Below, piece after piece: positions 2,294-38,934 of a stretch of 64,000 nt of DNA. A program made the position numbers and the translations under genes. The stretch is from UHGV virus genome UHGV-0090252; one strand, 5' to 3'. The notes under the pieces were generated by a model. The model was not told where the DNA came from, did not search any database, and saw only the letters and a list, made by a program, of their open reading frames with translations. The DNA is from a virus. Position 1 is the stretch's first letter. Each line of letters opens with the position of its first letter.

Positions 2294-2835
2294 TTAAATT
2301 AATCTTTGCAAGTGGTGAAAATGGGGAGTTTGGTACTCCAACTGGTATGCCGTGGCCTCGACATAAGCAAGATATGCAAGAGTTTAAGAGACTCACTAAA
2401 AACAACTTAGTAGTTATGGGCAATGAGACTTTTAAGACTCTGGGTAGTAAGCCTTTACCTGAACGTGAAAACCTTATCTTAACAAACTCTGTACCTTATT
2501 ATGGTATAGATTTTGGTAAAGAAGATGTAATGTATGCTAAGGCCAGCAAAGAGTCCTTTGGAGCATTTTTGAAGTATCTTGATAGCTCTATTGATGAAGA
2601 TGTCTTTGTAATTGGTGGTGCAGGTGTTCTTGTCGATGCTTTACCATATGCTGGTGTAGTTTTCCATACAGTTTTCCATAAAGTTACTGAAGAGACCACT
2701 GTGTATTTACCTTTTGAAAACTTCTTTGATAAGCTGTATGATAACCGTGTATTTGCAAAGGTGCAGTCGAGACCTTCAGATGATGGTAAAGCAACCTTTG
2801 AAATCTATGTTCCACAAGTAAAAGGACACTTTTGA
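2290..2835 (+). CDS. frd: dihydrofolate reductase
   Basis: 181 aa; N-terminus LIFA..GxxxGMPW and overall length match the DHFR family; immediately upstream of thymidylate synthase. Confidence 0.8.
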   Translation: MIKLIFASGENGEFGTPTGMPWPRHKQDMQEFKRLTKNNLVVMGNETFKTLGSKPLPERENLILTNSVPYYGIDFGKEDVMYAKASKESFGAFLKYLDSSIDEDVFVIGGAGVLVDALPYAGVVFHTVFHKVTEETTVYLPFENFFDKLYDNRVFAKVQSRPSDDGKATFEIYVPQVKGHF

Positions 2836-2836
2836 T

Positions 2837-3736
2837 ATGTCACAAGCTGATTTGAGTTACAAAAATATCCTGAACCATGTTTTATCCGTTGGTGAACTGC
2901 GTACTACACGAACTGGAGATGTTATCTCTGCATTTGCTCCACCAAAATTTCGTTTTGATATGCGTACTGGTTTCCCACTCTTAACATCTAAACAGGTGTT
3001 TACACGGCAAGTTATTGGGGAAGCTTTATGGTTCCTGAATGGTGAGAATAAACTTGGTGAACTCCGTTACCGTACTTGGGGTGAAAATGATGGGGAACGT
3101 TGGACTATCTGGTCAGATGATTTTAAACGCTGGTTAAGCTCTAACTATTCTTCTGAGCAAGACTGGTTAGAAGATGCAGGTGGGAGAATCTACGGGGTTC
3201 AGTGGAGAAACTTTGAAGGTCATAACGGTTGTGTTGTAGACCAGTTAGAGACCTTAGTAACGAAGATGAAAGGTGATATCACAGACCGTTACATGCTTGT
3301 TAATGCTTGGAATGCAGCAGATATTGCAGCTAACTCAATGGCTTTAGCACCTTGTCATGTTCTGTTTCAGATTTATATCACTAACGAAGGTGAGGTTGAC
3401 TTACAATGGTATCAACGTTCTGTAGACACCTTTTTAGGTCTTCCATTTAACATTGCATCTTATGGTTTTATTCTGGAAGTACTTTGCAAGATGACTGGAT
3501 ATACTCCACGGTACTTGATAGGTGTCTTTGGGGATACTCAGATTTATCAGAACCATATGAAGCAGGTTTATGAACTGATGAACAATAAAGAGTTCCATGC
3601 GCCTACTTTTGAGATTGGTGTGCAGCTTAACACGCTAAGTGACCTAAAACACCTTACCGCAAGTGATTTTATTGGTGGTATTAGCAACTACCAACATGCA
3701 GGAAAGATTGAAGCACCTCTGTCAGTAGGTAAGTAA
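2837..3736 (+). CDS. thyA: thymidylate synthase
   Basis: 299 aa; catalytic-site region ALAPCH and LPFNIASYGFIL match ThyA signatures. Confidence 0.9.
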   Translation: MSQADLSYKNILNHVLSVGELRTTRTGDVISAFAPPKFRFDMRTGFPLLTSKQVFTRQVIGEALWFLNGENKLGELRYRTWGENDGERWTIWSDDFKRWLSSNYSSEQDWLEDAGGRIYGVQWRNFEGHNGCVVDQLETLVTKMKGDITDRYMLVNAWNAADIAANSMALAPCHVLFQIYITNEGEVDLQWYQRSVDTFLGLPFNIASYGFILEVLCKMTGYTPRYLIGVFGDTQIYQNHMKQVYELMNNKEFHAPTFEIGVQLNTLSDLKHLTASDFIGGISNYQHAGKIEAPLSVGK

Positions 3737-27688: not shown

Positions 27689-27764
27689 TGGAGAATCCGA
27701 AGGGACTCGAACCCTTATAAACCTGTTTTGCAGACAGGCGCATATCCATTTCTGTCACGGATTC
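27689..27764 (-). tRNA. tRNA-Cys (anticodon GCA)
   Basis: Hand-folded cloverleaf; 7-bp acceptor, T-loop TTCGAGT, encoded CCA. Confidence 0.8.
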
Positions 27765-27768
27765 AAAT

Positions 27769-27861
27769 TGGAGGAAGATACCAGACTTGAACTGGTACAC
27801 CGATTTCTCAGCTACTGGCAGTTTAGCAAACTGCTCCCTTACCTTTTAGGGTTAATCTTCC
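27769..27861 (-). tRNA. tRNA-Ser (anticodon GCT), long variable arm
   Basis: 93 nt, type II structure, encoded CCA. Confidence 0.75.
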
Positions 27862-27862
27862 G

Positions 27863-35238: not shown

Positions 35239-35822
35239 CAGTAAGTTTTAATTACAATAGTGATGGCTCTGTATCAATTAACTCACCATATGCAAATGAC
35301 CTACTTAAAGAGCTAGTCAGTCAGTGTGAGCGGGGTCTTCACTATGTTCAAAATTCTTTTAAACAGAAGACTATTGCTAATAACTTGATGCGTGTAACAG
35401 TGACGGCATCGAATCCAAACTATGACTTTGATAGTGAAAGTCCATACTCATTAGTTGCGCTTGGAGAGTCCAGCCAATTCAAACTTGTTTGCCACGACTC
35501 AGAAACATTCCTTAAGGTATTTTCCAACCTTATCCATAATAATAAGTACAGCTACGTTGATGGTAGTGTAAACTTCTATCCAGCAAACTATACATGTTTG
35601 TTGACTGATAATATGAGAAAAAGTAAGCAAGAACCTACAGAAATTTCATTTGATGTGAACTCTAGTCCAGACGCAGAAACAAGTAAGAACTTTGATATGA
35701 GTTACGCATTGTCACTTAGTAAGAAATCCGAGTTCATTGATTATGTCAATGGATTTGGTTTTAAGTTTGATGAGAGTATGAATCTTAAAAAACTTAAGAA
35801 CCTACTTAAGACTAAAGCTTAA
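35232..35822 (+). CDS. hypothetical protein
   Basis: 196 aa ORF. Confidence 0.5.
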   Translation: MLTVSFNYNSDGSVSINSPYANDLLKELVSQCERGLHYVQNSFKQKTIANNLMRVTVTASNPNYDFDSESPYSLVALGESSQFKLVCHDSETFLKVFSNLIHNNKYSYVDGSVNFYPANYTCLLTDNMRKSKQEPTEISFDVNSSPDAETSKNFDMSYALSLSKKSEFIDYVNGFGFKFDESMNLKKLKNLLKTKA

Positions 35823-35830
35823 GTGTGAAT

Positions 35831-35850
35831 AGGGGCTGATGCCCCTTTAA
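35831..35850 (+). terminator. hairpin AGGGGC-TGAT-GCCCCT (weak terminator)
   Basis: GC hairpin followed by T-rich stretch. Confidence 0.4.
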
Positions 35851-35869: not shown

Positions 35870-36241
35870 ATGAAAGCTAAGAGTGCAAAAGACTTTTATT
35901 GCTTCCTACAATCCTATATCAATTCCGTGCAAAATGGTGAAAGGTACAACCTTAATGATGTTATCCCAACACCTTTGACATGGAGACTCAGCAAATGGCC
36001 TGAAGAAGATATTACACCAACAAGCGAACAACGCACCTACAAACCTGAAATCAATATTCCAGATTCTGAGAATCTACTATATCCAATGTTCCATATTGTT
36101 GGTCTTGGAAGATTCCTTATGGATATCCAGTATGTAATTGGTAAGGGTTATAAGGTTAAAGGTATTGTTGTTGGTGATGTATCTCCACATCACAAAGGTT
36201 ATTTTAGACTAAACGCACATTTAGAGGCTAAAAAGAAATGA
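35870..36241 (+). CDS. hypothetical protein, paralog of N-terminal domain of next gene
   Basis: 123 aa; shares motifs with the N-terminus of the Ig-repeat protein (KxKxxxDFxxF..., FxMDxQYxIxxGK). Confidence 0.5.
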   Translation: MKAKSAKDFYCFLQSYINSVQNGERYNLNDVIPTPLTWRLSKWPEEDITPTSEQRTYKPEINIPDSENLLYPMFHIVGLGRFLMDIQYVIGKGYKVKGIVVGDVSPHHKGYFRLNAHLEAKKK

Positions 36242-37623
36242 TTAAAGCAAAGACTTACCCAGACTTCAAAGAGTTTGTGAAGGGCTTCATTGCAAACGTA
36301 AAAGCTGGTAAGAGATATGATTTTAGAGCATATCAAGAGGCTATTTTACCGCTTACCTATAGTTCGTATTGGCCTGAAGCTGATATTGCAGAAGTTGAGG
36401 AGTTTGACTACAAACCAGACTACAAAGTTCCATTTAGTGATGAGTTGCTTTACAGCATTGGTGCTCAAATGAGAACTTCTGACTTCTTCATGGACTTACA
36501 ATATGCAATTATCAATGGTAAAGATGTTGATACAATTTATTGTGAATGGCTGGCAAGAGTTAAACCATTCTCAATGTTGAATGCTAAGTTGAAGGATGCT
36601 GTCAATCCACCAGCAATCACTCAGCAGCCAACCAATCAAACAGTAAATGAAGGTGACACACTTACCCTAAGTGTTATTGCAACTAATGCCACTGGATATC
36701 AATGGAAAAAGGGTGGTGAGGATATCACTAGCGCCACATCTGCAACCTACACAAAACAGTCTGTAGCACCTTCTGATGCAGGTTCATACACTTGTGTTGT
36801 ATCTGGAGAGGCTGGAACAAGTGTTACCTCAGATGCGGCAACAGTTACTGTCAACGCACTGCCTGTGATTACACAGCAACCTTCTAGCCAGACCATCAAT
36901 GAGGGTGGAAACATTAACTTGGAAGTGACTGCAACAGGTGCAACAGGTTATCAGTGGAAGAAAGATGGCTCTGACATCCCTTCAGCTACAGAGGCTACCT
37001 ATAGCAAGTCTGGTGCGCTGCCAGCAGATGCAGGTTCATACACTTGCGTTGTAACAGGTGCAGGTGGTTCTGTTACTTCTAGCCCTGCAACTGTCACGGT
37101 AAATGCTTTGCCAGTTATTACCAAGCAGCCAACCAATCAGGTAGTTAATGAGGGTAGCTCTTTGACACTGAGTGTTGAGGCGACAGGTGCGGAAGGTTAT
37201 CAGTGGAAAAAGGACGATGTGAACATCCCTAGTGCAACTGGTGCGACTTACACGAAAGCTAACGCAGTTCCTGACGATGCTGGTTCATATACCTGTGTAG
37301 TTACTGGTGCTGGTGGTACAACAGTCACATCTAATGCTGCAACAGTTACTGTGAATGCACTTCCGGTAATCACTCAACAGCCAACCAATCAAGAAATCAA
37401 TGAAGGTGAGACCTTAACGCTGAATGTTGTAGCAACAGGTGCAACAGGTTACCAGTGGAAGAAAGGTGAGGAAGACATCCTCGATGCAACTACTGCAACT
37501 TACACCAAAGAAGGTGCAACCGCTGCTGATTCAGGAAGCTACACCTGTGTAGTTACTGGTGCAGGTGGCTCTGTAACATCTAATGCAGCAACAGTTACTG
37601 TTAACCCAGCAGGGGAGGCATAA
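36238..37623 (+). CDS. Ig-like repeat protein (four tandem ~82-aa Ig-like domains), coupled to endolysin
   Basis: 461 aa; repeats of LPVITQQPTNQ..GYQWKK..AGSYTCVVTGAGG; stop overlaps the endolysin start (TAATG). Confidence 0.6.
   Translation: MIKAKTYPDFKEFVKGFIANVKAGKRYDFRAYQEAILPLTYSSYWPEADIAEVEEFDYKPDYKVPFSDELLYSIGAQMRTSDFFMDLQYAIINGKDVDTIYCEWLARVKPFSMLNAKLKDAVNPPAITQQPTNQTVNEGDTLTLSVIATNATGYQWKKGGEDITSATSATYTKQSVAPSDAGSYTCVVSGEAGTSVTSDAATVTVNALPVITQQPSSQTINEGGNINLEVTATGATGYQWKKDGSDIPSATEATYSKSGALPADAGSYTCVVTGAGGSVTSSPATVTVNALPVITKQPTNQVVNEGSSLTLSVEATGAEGYQWKKDDVNIPSATGATYTKANAVPDDAGSYTCVVTGAGGTTVTSNAATVTVNALPVITQQPTNQEINEGETLTLNVVATGATGYQWKKGEEDILDATTATYTKEGATAADSGSYTCVVTGAGGSVTSNAATVTVNPAGEA
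36598..37620 (+). repeat. four tandem ~246-bp coding repeats (Ig-like domain units)
   Basis: Near-identical DNA/protein repeats inside CDS 36238-37623. Confidence 0.7.
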
Positions 37624-38087
37624 TGCAACTCTCAAGAAAAGGCTTAGATACTATTAAGTTCTTTGAAGGTCTGAAGTTAGAGGCTTACGAAGACTCTGCC
37701 GGAATCCCAACAATCGGGTATGGTACAATCCGTATTGACGGAAAACCTGTTAAGATGGGTATGAAAATTACTGCTGAACAAGCTGAACAGTATCTTCTCG
37801 CAGATGTTGAAAAGTTCGTTGCAGCAGTGAACAAATCCATCAAGGTTCCAACTTCCCAGAATGAGTTTGACGCACTTGTAAGTGAAACATACAACATTGG
37901 CATCACAGCTATGCAGGACTCTACATTTATTAAGCGCCACAACGATGGTAATAAGGTAGGTTGTGCAGAAGCTATGCAATGGTGGAACAAGGTTACAGTC
38001 AAAGGTAAGAAGGTCACTTCAAACGGTCTTAAAAACAGACGTAGAATGGAAGCTGACATTTATCTTGACAGTGTATATCCAAAGTAA
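37623..38087 (+). CDS. endolysin, GH24 lysozyme family
   Basis: 154 aa; FEGLKLEAYEDSAGIPTIGYGT matches the catalytic region of lambda-R/T4-type lysozymes. Confidence 0.85.
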   Translation: MQLSRKGLDTIKFFEGLKLEAYEDSAGIPTIGYGTIRIDGKPVKMGMKITAEQAEQYLLADVEKFVAAVNKSIKVPTSQNEFDALVSETYNIGITAMQDSTFIKRHNDGNKVGCAEAMQWWNKVTVKGKKVTSNGLKNRRRMEADIYLDSVYPK

Positions 38088-38096
38088 TATCTTCAT

Positions 38097-38124
38097 AGGC
38101 TCCTTCGGGAGCCTTTTTTATTTT
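38097..38124 (+). terminator. rho-independent terminator after endolysin
   Basis: AGGCTCC-TTCG-GGAGCCT followed by T6. Confidence 0.6.
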
Positions 38125-38138
38125 CTAAGGAGAAAACT

Positions 38139-38537
38139 ATGAAACTTTGGGCTAGTGACTTTGGAACTTTTAAGTACACCCGTAATGGTTCGCTTGTACG
38201 CATTGTAGGTAACAATGTGGTTTCAAGAGGCGACAAGGTGTATACACGGTTTACTGTAGAACTTGTTGAACTGTCACCTATTGAGTCTGTGAACAATGGT
38301 CTGTTCAAGTTTGAGACTTACCATGTAAATGAACACGGACAGTTTAACACTCTAGGTGAAAGTGGCCTTGATATTATTTCAGAACACCCCTTGACAAGAG
38401 AGCAGCTTGCGAGTTACTATAAAACCGTTCTTGAAAGGACTTTGGCAACACATGAGCATGAGGCCAGATATCACATAGAACGTTGTGAAGTTTTAAGAGC
38501 AAAAATCGAACAAGCAGAGAGAGGTTTTTATGAATAA
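38139..38537 (+). CDS. hypothetical protein
   Basis: 132 aa; AAGGAGA RBS. Confidence 0.5.
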   Translation: MKLWASDFGTFKYTRNGSLVRIVGNNVVSRGDKVYTRFTVELVELSPIESVNNGLFKFETYHVNEHGQFNTLGESGLDIISEHPLTREQLASYYKTVLERTLATHEHEARYHIERCEVLRAKIEQAERGFYE

Positions 38538-38934
38538 TATCAGTCAGATTAAAGTTAAAGTCGATGTTAGCCGTTACAGTGGAGATGAAGAATTAGACCT
38601 GCGAGATGCGATTCTCTATGAGAAGGGTGGCAATCTGCATTTACATTTTGAAGGTACAAACACATATCTACACAGATGTCGAGATGATGTAGATGGTTGT
38701 CCTGTTTTTGCTTGGTATAATTTAGAGTTTCCTCTTTATGCAATCCACTATCCAGATGGTGGGGAAGACTGGACAACGCAGTCAATCTTTGATGAGCTTA
38801 ATGGTATTCCAGTTGAGCAAGAAGAGCAAGAAGAGCAAGAACCTGTTGAACTCACCTTCACTTTTATCAAAGAAGAGAAAGTAGGTGACTTGTCAGTAAC
38901 TGAAGCAATTCAAGTCTCACAGGTTATTCGTTAA
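38530..38934 (+). CDS. hypothetical protein
   Basis: 134 aa. Confidence 0.5.
   Translation: MNNISQIKVKVDVSRYSGDEELDLRDAILYEKGGNLHLHFEGTNTYLHRCRDDVDGCPVFAWYNLEFPLYAIHYPDGGEDWTTQSIFDELNGIPVEQEEQEEQEPVELTFTFIKEEKVGDLSVTEAIQVSQVIR

Follow-up and report, generated by a model that had tools for sequence, protein, structure and literature searches.

The locus examined here raises the question of why a protein composed largely of Ig-like domains should be encoded immediately upstream of, and overlapping with, the gene for a phage endolysin. A first-pass annotation had offered two answers: either the Ig-repeat protein is a cell-wall-binding or lysis-associated partner of the lysin, or it is a decoration protein that shares expression with it. 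The window analysed (the whole 64-kb stretch of DNA) is a Felixounavirus genome that is 96.5% identical in DNA sequence to Escherichia phage pinkbiff and matches 238 Felix-like records. Its Ig-repeat gene, ORF 36238-37623, encodes a protein of 461 amino acids and is preceded by a small gene encoding a relative of the N-terminal domain of that protein (Table 1). A single explanation very probably accounts for all three genes: the Ig-repeat protein decorates the capsid, its overlap with the lysin gene reflects no partnership between the two products and the small upstream gene encodes an accessory duplicate of the capsid-binding domain (CapBD).

Table 1 Features of the paralogue, Hex-Dec and lysin region (positions are those of the window)
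Feature	Position	Strand	Evidence or remarks
Conserved GC hairpin GGGGCTGATGCCCC followed by TTT	35833..35850 (approximate)	+	Between the 196-aa ORF and the paralogue
Stand-alone CapBD paralogue, 123 aa, pI 9.1, no Ig units	35870..36241	+	Orthologue of Felix O1 ORF37
Capsid-binding domain (CapBD) at the N terminus of Hex-Dec	36238..36606	+	Match to 9NCF_S and 9C2D/9C3A_S; Arg79 and Arg107 present; dN/dS 0.045
Ig-like unit R1 (84 aa)	36607..36858	+	Pfam Ig_3 / I-set; almost all analysed relatives have it, by orthologue mapping
Ig-like unit R2 (83 aa), optional internal module	36859..37107	+	Missing from one- and two-Ig forms
Ig-like unit R3 (84 aa), rare internal module giving the four-Ig allele	37108..37359	+	
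Ig-like unit R4 (82 aa) with 5-aa tail (PAGEA) and stop codon	37360..37623 (unit itself 37360-37605)	+	
GH24 (T4/lambda-type) soluble endolysin, 154 aa	37623..38087	+	PF00959 E 2.5e-40; phrog_7 endolysin
Intrinsic-terminator-like hairpin AGGCTCCTTCGGGAGCCT followed by a T run	38097..38124	+	Closes the paralogue / Hex-Dec / lysin unit

Identity of the Ig-repeat protein and its place on the head

Judged by its sequence, the product of ORF 36238-37623 is the already known Felixounavirus hexamer decoration protein Hex-Dec, which belongs with Sf14 gp20 among the decoration proteins of the Ounavirinae. Residues 1-459 are matched by phmmer to chain S of PDB entry 9NCF, from phage Bas63 (E 1.7e-269), and the protein also matches Sf14 gp20 (chain S of 9C2D and 9C3A, E 6.5e-173), with residues 1-198 aligning end to end with the portions of 9NCF_S and 9C2D_S that have been modelled. 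ORF36 of phage Felix O1 is a further orthologue, the product of which has been detected in virions by mass spectrometry, and the Felix O1 gene order ORF37-36-35 corresponds to the trio of paralogue, Hex-Dec and lysin genes in the window. This trio is retained in all 25 loci compared and in a divergent phage as well. In this Felix O1-like genome, the Hex-Dec gene is not part of the structural module; its neighbours on either side are the 123-aa gene and the lysin gene. The protein is known as Hex-Dec in Bas63, as gp20 in Sf14 and, under the label 'tail protein', as Gp36 in Felix O1.

The structure of Hex-Dec on the Felix O1-type capsid was published in 2025 (PMC11821841, PMC12609058). The 118 residues at the N terminus form the binding domain, and cryo-EM and virion mass spectrometry place the proteins at hexamer centres (PMC11821841, PMC12609058). 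In the Bas63 and Sf14 cryo-EM structures, the T=9 capsid carries the decoration protein at the centres of its 60 facet-edge (quasi-3-fold) hexamers; the other class, the 20 true-3-fold hexamers, shows no density in either Bas63 (PMC12609058) or Sf14 (PMC11821841). The centre of the Sf14 hexamer is described as Asp-lined, and Arg79 and Arg107 of gp20 are joined by salt bridges to Asp221 in the major capsid protein (PMC11821841). Both arginines are present in the Hex-Dec protein of the window and are invariant in 26 of 26 orthologues. A search of the 64-kb window with the N-terminal motif of the Felix O1 major capsid protein, made in order to check Asp221, did not find that protein, so that either its gene lies beyond the window or its motif differs from that of Felix O1. 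With cryo-EM models of the Bas63 (9NCF_S) and Sf14 (9C2D_S) proteins and Felix O1 virion mass spectrometry in agreement, the second of the two original suggestions, that of a decoration protein sharing its expression with the lysin, was essentially right.

From its near-identity to the Bas63 protein, we infer that the Hex-Dec of the window is bound at the centres of the facet-edge hexamers. As has been shown in relatives, each of the 60 hexamers would take up one monomer, whose N-terminal CapBD of ~120 amino acids plugs the acidic centre and is anchored there by contacts between Arg79 and Arg107 and Asp221 of the major capsid protein. By analogy with T4 Hoc, the four Ig-like domains would project from the head as a flexible acidic fibre (pI 4.2) that probably lets the phage adhere weakly to mucus, to cell surfaces or to other virions and that would not be required for capsid integrity.

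Ig-like units and other decoration systems

The presence of four tandem Ig-like units, of 82-84 amino acids each, is borne out by Pfam (Ig_3, E 1.4e-44, four stretches). The units had also been described as near-identical, but pairwise identities are only 68-72% at the amino acid level and 64-70% at the nucleotide level, and Tandem Repeats Finder reports no array between positions 36000 and 38200. Recent amplification of the repeats was considered and rejected, the units being too diverged for that program. Among relatives, the number of units ranges from one to four with positional orthology, a variability that the first-pass annotation had itself regarded as telling against a link with lysis. 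An R2-like unit is found in 143 phage records (92 full length) and is missing from the one- and two-Ig forms, and an R3-like unit is found in just 13. The units are old, interchangeable and positionally orthologous modules, with R1 and R4 near-universal and R2 and R3 optional, the latter probably being gained and lost by in-register recombination. The four-unit allele found in the window is rare.

The closest characterised counterpart, from Bas63 (Escherichia phage JohannRWettstein), is a protein of 460 amino acids, compared with 461 in the window. The two are near-identical outside Ig unit 3, which is a different allele in each phage, most substitutions falling at residues 291-374; in both phages, the gene lies outside the structural module. 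The gp20 protein of Sf14, a Shigella phage of the Mooglevirus group, has three Ig domains rather than four, but shares a homologous CapBD with both Arg79 and Arg107; it sits, as a monomer, at the centres of quasi-3-fold hexamers and has been detected in virions by mass spectrometry (PMC11821841). Mooglevirus loci also have the same order of paralogue, decoration and lysin genes as the window.

T4 Hoc, too, is a monomer at hexamer centres with an acidic Ig-like string pointing outwards, is dispensable and varies in Ig number. However, Hoc binds through its C-terminal domain, whereas the binding domain of Hex-Dec is N-terminal, giving a reversed order, and T4 has no counterpart of the CapBD-only paralogue. 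The capsid-binding domains of the two proteins are topologically distinct and have minimal sequence in common (PMC12609058). Matches to Hoc-like decoration PHROGs (E 1e-56 and 2e-50) are limited to the Ig units of Hex-Dec (residues 290-459 and 294-372). Hex-Dec therefore works like Hoc, yet is not a member of the T4 Hoc family. Much the same can be said of T5 pb10, the single Ig domain of which (against four in the window) is detectably homologous to that of Hex-Dec (5lxk_A, E 2.7e-12): pb10 (5LXK, 8ZVI) aligns with the Ig part only (query residues 299-374), leaving the binding domain unmatched. Without a pb10-type N-terminal capsid-binding domain, Hex-Dec would appear to fall outside the pb10 family.

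The upstream CapBD paralogue

The relationship between the N-terminal ~120 amino acids of Hex-Dec and the preceding gene, also proposed at the outset, is well supported (BLASTP, 36% identity over 121 amino acids, E 4e-18). The TGA stop codon of the paralogue overlaps the Hex-Dec start codon as ATGA. The protein belongs to phrog_4463, annotated as of 'unknown function', but is matched to 9ncf_S by phmmer (E 1.2e-11), and Foldseek comparison of an AF2 model of moderate confidence (pLDDT 68.6) identifies 9ncf_S (TM 0.65) and 9c2d_S (TM 0.62) with a probability of 1.00, no PDB fold being matched beyond these two. A search with an HMM derived from alignment A2 shows CapBD copies in these two genes only within the 64-kb window and a single copy in each of three distant loci (L033, L034 and L036); in L033, the protein encoded upstream of the distant CapBD-Big_2 gene is not a paralogue. 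Word-index protein searches retrieve close relatives only and are biased to 210-aa forms, and it was the exhaustive HMM search that revealed the true, very narrow extent of the family.

The paralogue is conserved between genera and evolves under purifying selection (dN/dS 0.13). Of 253 Felix-like GenBank records, 233 hold a full-length copy and about 19 a decayed one, and in the REP11/Z31 lineage the gene is a pseudogene. Taken together, these observations suggest an ancient duplicate of CapBD alone that encodes a functional but dispensable accessory protein. Among 17 representatives, position 79, which is arginine in Hex-Dec, is always glycine, and position 107 is histidine, glutamine or, once, arginine. 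The paralogue is also basic, whereas the CapBD of Hex-Dec is acidic. The virion proteins identified by mass spectrometry in Felix O1 do not include ORF37, and the main text of the VpaE1 proteomics paper implies that the VpaE1 orthologue is likewise missing from virion proteins. Neither the Bas63 nor the Sf14 capsid map has the paralogue modelled, and the gene is mentioned in neither structure paper (PMC11821841, PMC12609058).

What, then, might the protein do? Our best guess is that it could make transient or low-occupancy contact with capsid hexamers during head assembly and would not be a stable component of the virion. More specifically, and only tentatively, it might be a head-assembly or decoration factor that acts as a basic 'blank plug', either passing through hexamer centres in the procapsid or occupying the 20 true-3-fold hexamers in a labile or low-occupancy manner. 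More doubtful still is the idea that it is an overlooked second decoration protein, stably filling the true-3-fold hexamers or competing with Hex-Dec over occupancy. That exactly one hexamer class is empty in both structures invites this reading, as do the shared CapBD fold, late co-transcription with Hex-Dec, purifying selection across genera and a basic charge that could suit the Asp-lined hexamer centre seen in Sf14. However, those hexamers are without density in Bas63 and Sf14 alike, the protein does not feature in the Felix O1 virion list (nor, it would appear, in that of VpaE1), both anchoring arginines have been lost and the gene has decayed in some records, all of which argue against a stable place on the capsid.

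The junction with the lysin gene

The lysin is the orthologue of Felix O1 ORF35, with a catalytic motif E15-(8)-D24-(5)-T30 and no N-terminal hydrophobic segment. The reported overlap between the Hex-Dec stop codon and the lysin start codon is confirmed, TAA and ATG being combined as ATAATG at 37620-37625. The overlap itself stands, whereas the translational coupling originally proposed is no more than a deduction from it. A GGAGG Shine-Dalgarno sequence is present at 37614-37618, inside the 3' end of the Hex-Dec gene, and the lysin can initiate independently because this strong site lies 5 nt upstream of its ATG. At the lysin start, RNA folding predicts only a weak local hairpin (-9.9 to -14.9 kcal/mol), in which part of the Shine-Dalgarno sequence is paired; this makes no convincing case that coupling is obligatory.

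The CapBD paralogue, Hex-Dec, the GH24 lysin and the terminator form a small unit. In the Felix O1 paper, a terminator named t35 is tabulated on the complement strand at the place that matches the lysin, though the sequence is not displayed. At the other end, the GC hairpin upstream of the paralogue is nearly invariant in REP11 and Z31 and is followed by an AAGGA ribosome-binding site; it falls below the T-run threshold of the terminator scan. The 185/196-aa ORF lying further upstream was considered as a T4 Inh-like protein and rejected, since a faint Pfam hint was not reproduced even at E <= 10; in T4, the Inh gene presumably adjoins hoc.

If the Ig-repeat protein were a partner in lysis, it would bind peptidoglycan or LPS as a detached wall-binding module for the GH24 lysin, with stoichiometry set by translational coupling. 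Endolysins of phages with Gram-negative hosts seldom require binding modules, however, and this reading, now largely refuted, is very improbable. In its favour, the ATAATG overlap is kept in 20 of 20 Felixounavirus loci analysed, and adjacency of CapBD and lysozyme genes persists even in distant relatives; against this, the overlap gives way to a 1-2 nt spacer in several Mooglevirus-like loci and, in a distant lineage, to a gap of 50 nt, and the lysin has a ribosome-binding site of its own. In Hex-Dec, Pfam detects only Ig-type families, with no LysM, SH3 or PG_binding domain, and the protein has no membrane or signal segment (maximum Kyte-Doolittle hydropathy over 19 residues, 1.04). Nor do related phages fuse the Ig repeats to the lysin, as had been proposed as a check: in 25 relatives, the lysin is always separate and 154 amino acids long. 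Furthermore, Felix O1 lysin transcripts peak at 25 min and those of ORF36 and ORF37 at 60 min, and the Hex-Dec orthologues sit physically on the capsid. The overlap is a matter of compact-operon architecture and conserved synteny, without functional partnership.

It is equally hard to sustain the view that Hex-Dec is a tail protein, which follows phrog_3995 ('tail protein', E 4e-242), GenBank annotations ('putative tail protein') and the Felix O1 paper ('major tail protein' for Gp36), given that cryo-EM models locate the protein on capsid hexamers, that PHROG major-tail matches span the Ig units only and that no tail density for it has been reported in Bas63 or Sf14.

The value of the main feature lies chiefly in annotation: most GenBank records label the gene 'tail protein' where Hoc-like capsid decoration protein is correct, and its adjacency to the lysin gene invites a mistaken lysis reading. 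Beyond this, Ig-bearing decoration proteins matter for phage adherence to mucus and as scaffolds for phage display and vaccines, and the modular map, with R1 and R4 constant and R2 and R3 optional, indicates positions that tolerate insertion. The CapBD-only paralogue poses a small and tractable question, modest rather than a major open problem, concerning the control of site-selective decoration on a T=9 capsid. Were the plug idea true, the paralogue could govern both the sites at which the Ig-bearing Hex-Dec is displayed and its amount, and the ATGA overlap would fix the ratio in which the two proteins are expressed.

The 461-aa decoration protein and its surroundings

The window is a Felixounavirus genome; this region shares 96.5% DNA identity with Escherichia phage pinkbiff, and matches were obtained to 238 Felix O1-like records. 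The three open reading frames placed here by the first-pass annotation were all recovered in position, joined by the overlaps AAATGA (paralogue stop, Hex-Dec start) and ATAATG (Hex-Dec stop, lysin start). The middle product, the 461-aa Hex-Dec (hexamer decoration protein), aligns across residues 1-459 with PDB 9NCF chain S (‘Immunoglobulin-like domain protein’, 460 aa; E 1.7e-269) and also matches 9C2D/9C3A chain S (‘tail protein’, 372 aa; E 6.5e-173). These entries come from icosahedral reconstructions of the Bas63 and Shigella phage Sf14 capsids, respectively (PMC12609058, PMC11821841).

Called Hex-Dec in Bas63 and gp20 in Sf14, this Hoc-like decoration protein is a monomer. Its N-terminal ~118-122 aa, the capsid-binding domain (CapBD), occupy the middle of each facet-edge (quasi-3-fold) hexamer in a T=9 head, with a single copy in every asymmetric unit and hence 60 on the whole capsid (PMC12609058, PMC11821841). 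The 20 true-3-fold hexamers are empty in both phages and the flexible Ig domains are unresolved in both maps (PMC12609058, PMC11821841). Arg79 and Arg107 anchor Sf14 gp20 by pairing with Asp221 on the capsid protein (PMC11821841), and both arginines are kept in the Hex-Dec studied here and in 26/26 extracted orthologues. A decoration protein was among the alternatives offered at first pass, and the near-identical Bas63 and homologous Sf14 structures bear that reading out; Hex-Dec is already known, the structure of a near-identical protein having been published in 2025.

Most genomes wrongly annotate Hex-Dec as ‘tail protein’ (PMC12609058). The error appears to trace to Felix O1, where the orthologue, ORF36, lying between lysin ORF35 and ORF37, was detected by virion mass spectrometry and named ‘tail protein’ in the Felix O1 paper. 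The Shigella phage Z31 record gives the gene as two CDS, one of 134 aa and one of 55 aa, suggesting either a truncated or frameshifted gene that keeps little beyond CapBD or a sequencing error.

Features of the decoration/lysin locus and of compared relatives
Feature	Sequence	Coordinates	Strand	Detail
tRNA cluster	window	27689-32580	minus	25 genes
DUF2828 + DUF7788 protein	window	32746-34161	minus	471 aa
DUF5681 protein	window	34241-34612	minus	
phrog_4034 ORF	window	35232-35822		196 aa, unknown function
Paralogue ORF	window	35870-36241		123 aa, precedes Hex-Dec
Hex-Dec ORF	window	36238-37623		461 aa
R1	window	36607-36858		Ig unit
R2	window	36859-37107		Ig unit
R3	window	37108-37359		Ig unit
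R4	window	37360-37605		Ig unit
Lysin ORF	window	37623-38087		154 aa, follows Hex-Dec
Terminator-like hairpin	window	38097-38124		3' of lysin
Carboxypeptidase-labelled ORF	window	38530-38934		134 aa
Paralogue pseudogene	L029 (Z31), L030 (REP11)	about 2806-2997		
Hex-Dec as two CDS	L029 (Z31)	2998-3570		
Distant CapBD member	L033	869-1489		
Distant CapBD member	L034	2179-2868		
Distant CapBD member	L036	6001-6462		

A divergently transcribed tRNA cluster, of a kind typical for Felix O1-like genomes, lies ~3 kb upstream. Between it and the decoration/lysin unit sits a DUF2828 + DUF7788 / DUF5681 pair (the former annotated ‘RNA-binding protein’ in Felix O1) that is syntenic even in L036, a distant CapBD-bearing phage. 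The 196-aa ORF is likewise syntenic there with the genes for the CapBD protein and lysozyme, at 25% identity (E 2e-13); a faint precomputed resemblance of its L036 homologue to T4 Inh_N was not reproducible. Beyond the lysin, pinkbiff and other records label the orthologue of the 134-aa protein ‘D-alanyl-D-alanine carboxypeptidase’, a label that looks unsupported, since the protein has no Pfam match at E <= 0.01.

Modular Ig-like units

Pfam recovers four Ig_3 / I-set stretches in Hex-Dec (E 1.4e-44), designated R1 to R4 from the N-terminus. The first-pass annotation had described four near-identical ~82-aa repeats: the number holds, but at 82-84 aa each the units share only 68-72% protein and 64-70% DNA identity and no tandem array over them was detected by Tandem Repeats Finder, so ‘near-identical’ is wrong, although the first-pass observation is otherwise largely correct. 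Placing every unit from 27 orthologues onto R1-R4 showed orthology by position, not recent amplification. Proteins with two Ig units, such as Felix O1 Gp36, have R1+R4, those with three mostly R1+R2+R4 and those with four R1+R2+R3+R4, whilst one-Ig proteins resemble R1/R4 hybrids; R2/R4 chimeras are seen among the terminal units (in Felix O1 and the relative locus L007, for example). In-register recombination between units fits this pattern.

The window carries a rare four-Ig allele, R3-like DNA being found in only 13 phage records against 143 for R2-like DNA, and its R3 differs on alignment from that of Bas63. Unit number in the genus ranges from one to four, with four in Bas63 (PMC12609058), and the same variability in our comparison, named in advance by the first-pass annotation as refuting, counts against a fixed role in structure or wall binding. 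Bacterial surface fibres also carry this Ig subtype; the best non-phage PDB match for the units (36607-37605) is 9flp_A (E 1.4e-88, 14 stretches), the grappling-hook protein GhpA from Aureispira, a predatory bacterium.

Adjacency to the lysin

The downstream protein has a Phage_lysozyme (GH24) domain (Pfam, E 2.5e-40) with the catalytic motif E15-(8)-D24-(5)-T30; no hydrophobic N-terminus was found in it. The order paralogue, Hex-Dec, lysin is kept in 25/25 loci from IMG/VR and GenBank, and also in L031, a divergent 87-kb metagenomic phage. The first-pass suggestion of a lysis-associated partner found no support. The ATAATG overlap is invariant in 20/20 Felixounavirus loci analysed, but Mooglevirus-like loci have a 1-2 nt spacer instead, and in a more distant lineage 50 nt separate the lysozyme from a single 153-aa CapBD gene with a Lys-rich tail and no Ig domain. 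In nearly all cases the lysin has its own GGAGG-type Shine-Dalgarno 5 nt ahead of its ATG, and no Ig-lysin fusion occurs among the 25 loci. By RT-PCR in Felix O1, lysin ORF35 peaks at 25 min, whereas ORF36 and ORF37 are of the late class (60 min), as are further structural genes, among them ORFs 53, 63, 64, 73 and 77. A search of Hex-Dec for wall-binding, membrane or signal features yielded none. Together these observations disfavour a functional partnership; the adjacency reflects old synteny and compact operon packing.

The CapBD-only paralogue

Paralogy with the preceding gene, noted at first pass, is confirmed: the first 120 aa of Hex-Dec share 36% identity with the product of that gene (E 4e-18). 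This protein (PHROG 4463, ‘unknown function’) goes unmentioned in the Bas63 and Sf14 structure papers, where ‘Paralog’, ‘gp19’ and ‘gp21’ gave no relevant matches (PMC12609058, PMC11821841). It is nevertheless a real, conserved gene, 122-124 aa long in every relative and full-length in 233/253 Felix-like GenBank records (Felixounavirus, Mooglevirus and CHB7-like phages), and is under purifying selection (dN/dS 0.13; the Hex-Dec CapBD has 0.045 and the lysin 0.08). Yet in one Felixounavirus sublineage (Escherichia phage REP11, Z31 and others; about 19/253 records) it is a pseudogene that has lost its start codon and ~220 bp internally, with the flanking hairpin and Hex-Dec start context retained in Z31 and REP11. 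The paralogue is thus a functional gene that the phage can do without.

Across 1.84 billion cluster representatives, an exhaustive HMM search recovered just 12 members of the entire CapBD superfamily, some of them fused to Big_2 or Ig domains or bearing a disordered tail. Distant members differ in their display parts, which are Big_2, a lone Ig_3 domain or a disordered, Lys-rich tail. Because distant lineages carry one CapBD copy each, the duplication is confined to the Felix O1 / Moogle / L031 clade.

An AlphaFold2 model of the paralogue, of moderate confidence (pLDDT 68.6, pTM 0.70), has 9ncf_S (TM 0.65) and 9c2d_S (TM 0.62) as its only PDB matches (probability 1.00), which supports a shared CapBD fold. 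In behaviour, however, it is unlike CapBD. Arg79 is replaced by an invariant Gly and Arg107 by His or Gln; the protein is basic (pI 9.1) where CapBD is acidic (pI 5.0); a sublineage has let it decay; density was absent at the unoccupied hexamers in both cryo-EM studies (PMC12609058, PMC11821841); and ORF37 is missing from the virion mass spectrometry list in the Felix O1 paper, its VpaE1 orthologue ORF40 seeming likewise absent from the virion to judge by the text of the VpaE1 paper. Our best guess is that the paralogue might make transient or low-occupancy contact with capsid hexamers during assembly. Residual interest at the locus is confined to this CapBD-only protein and to the modular arrangement mapped for the Ig units.
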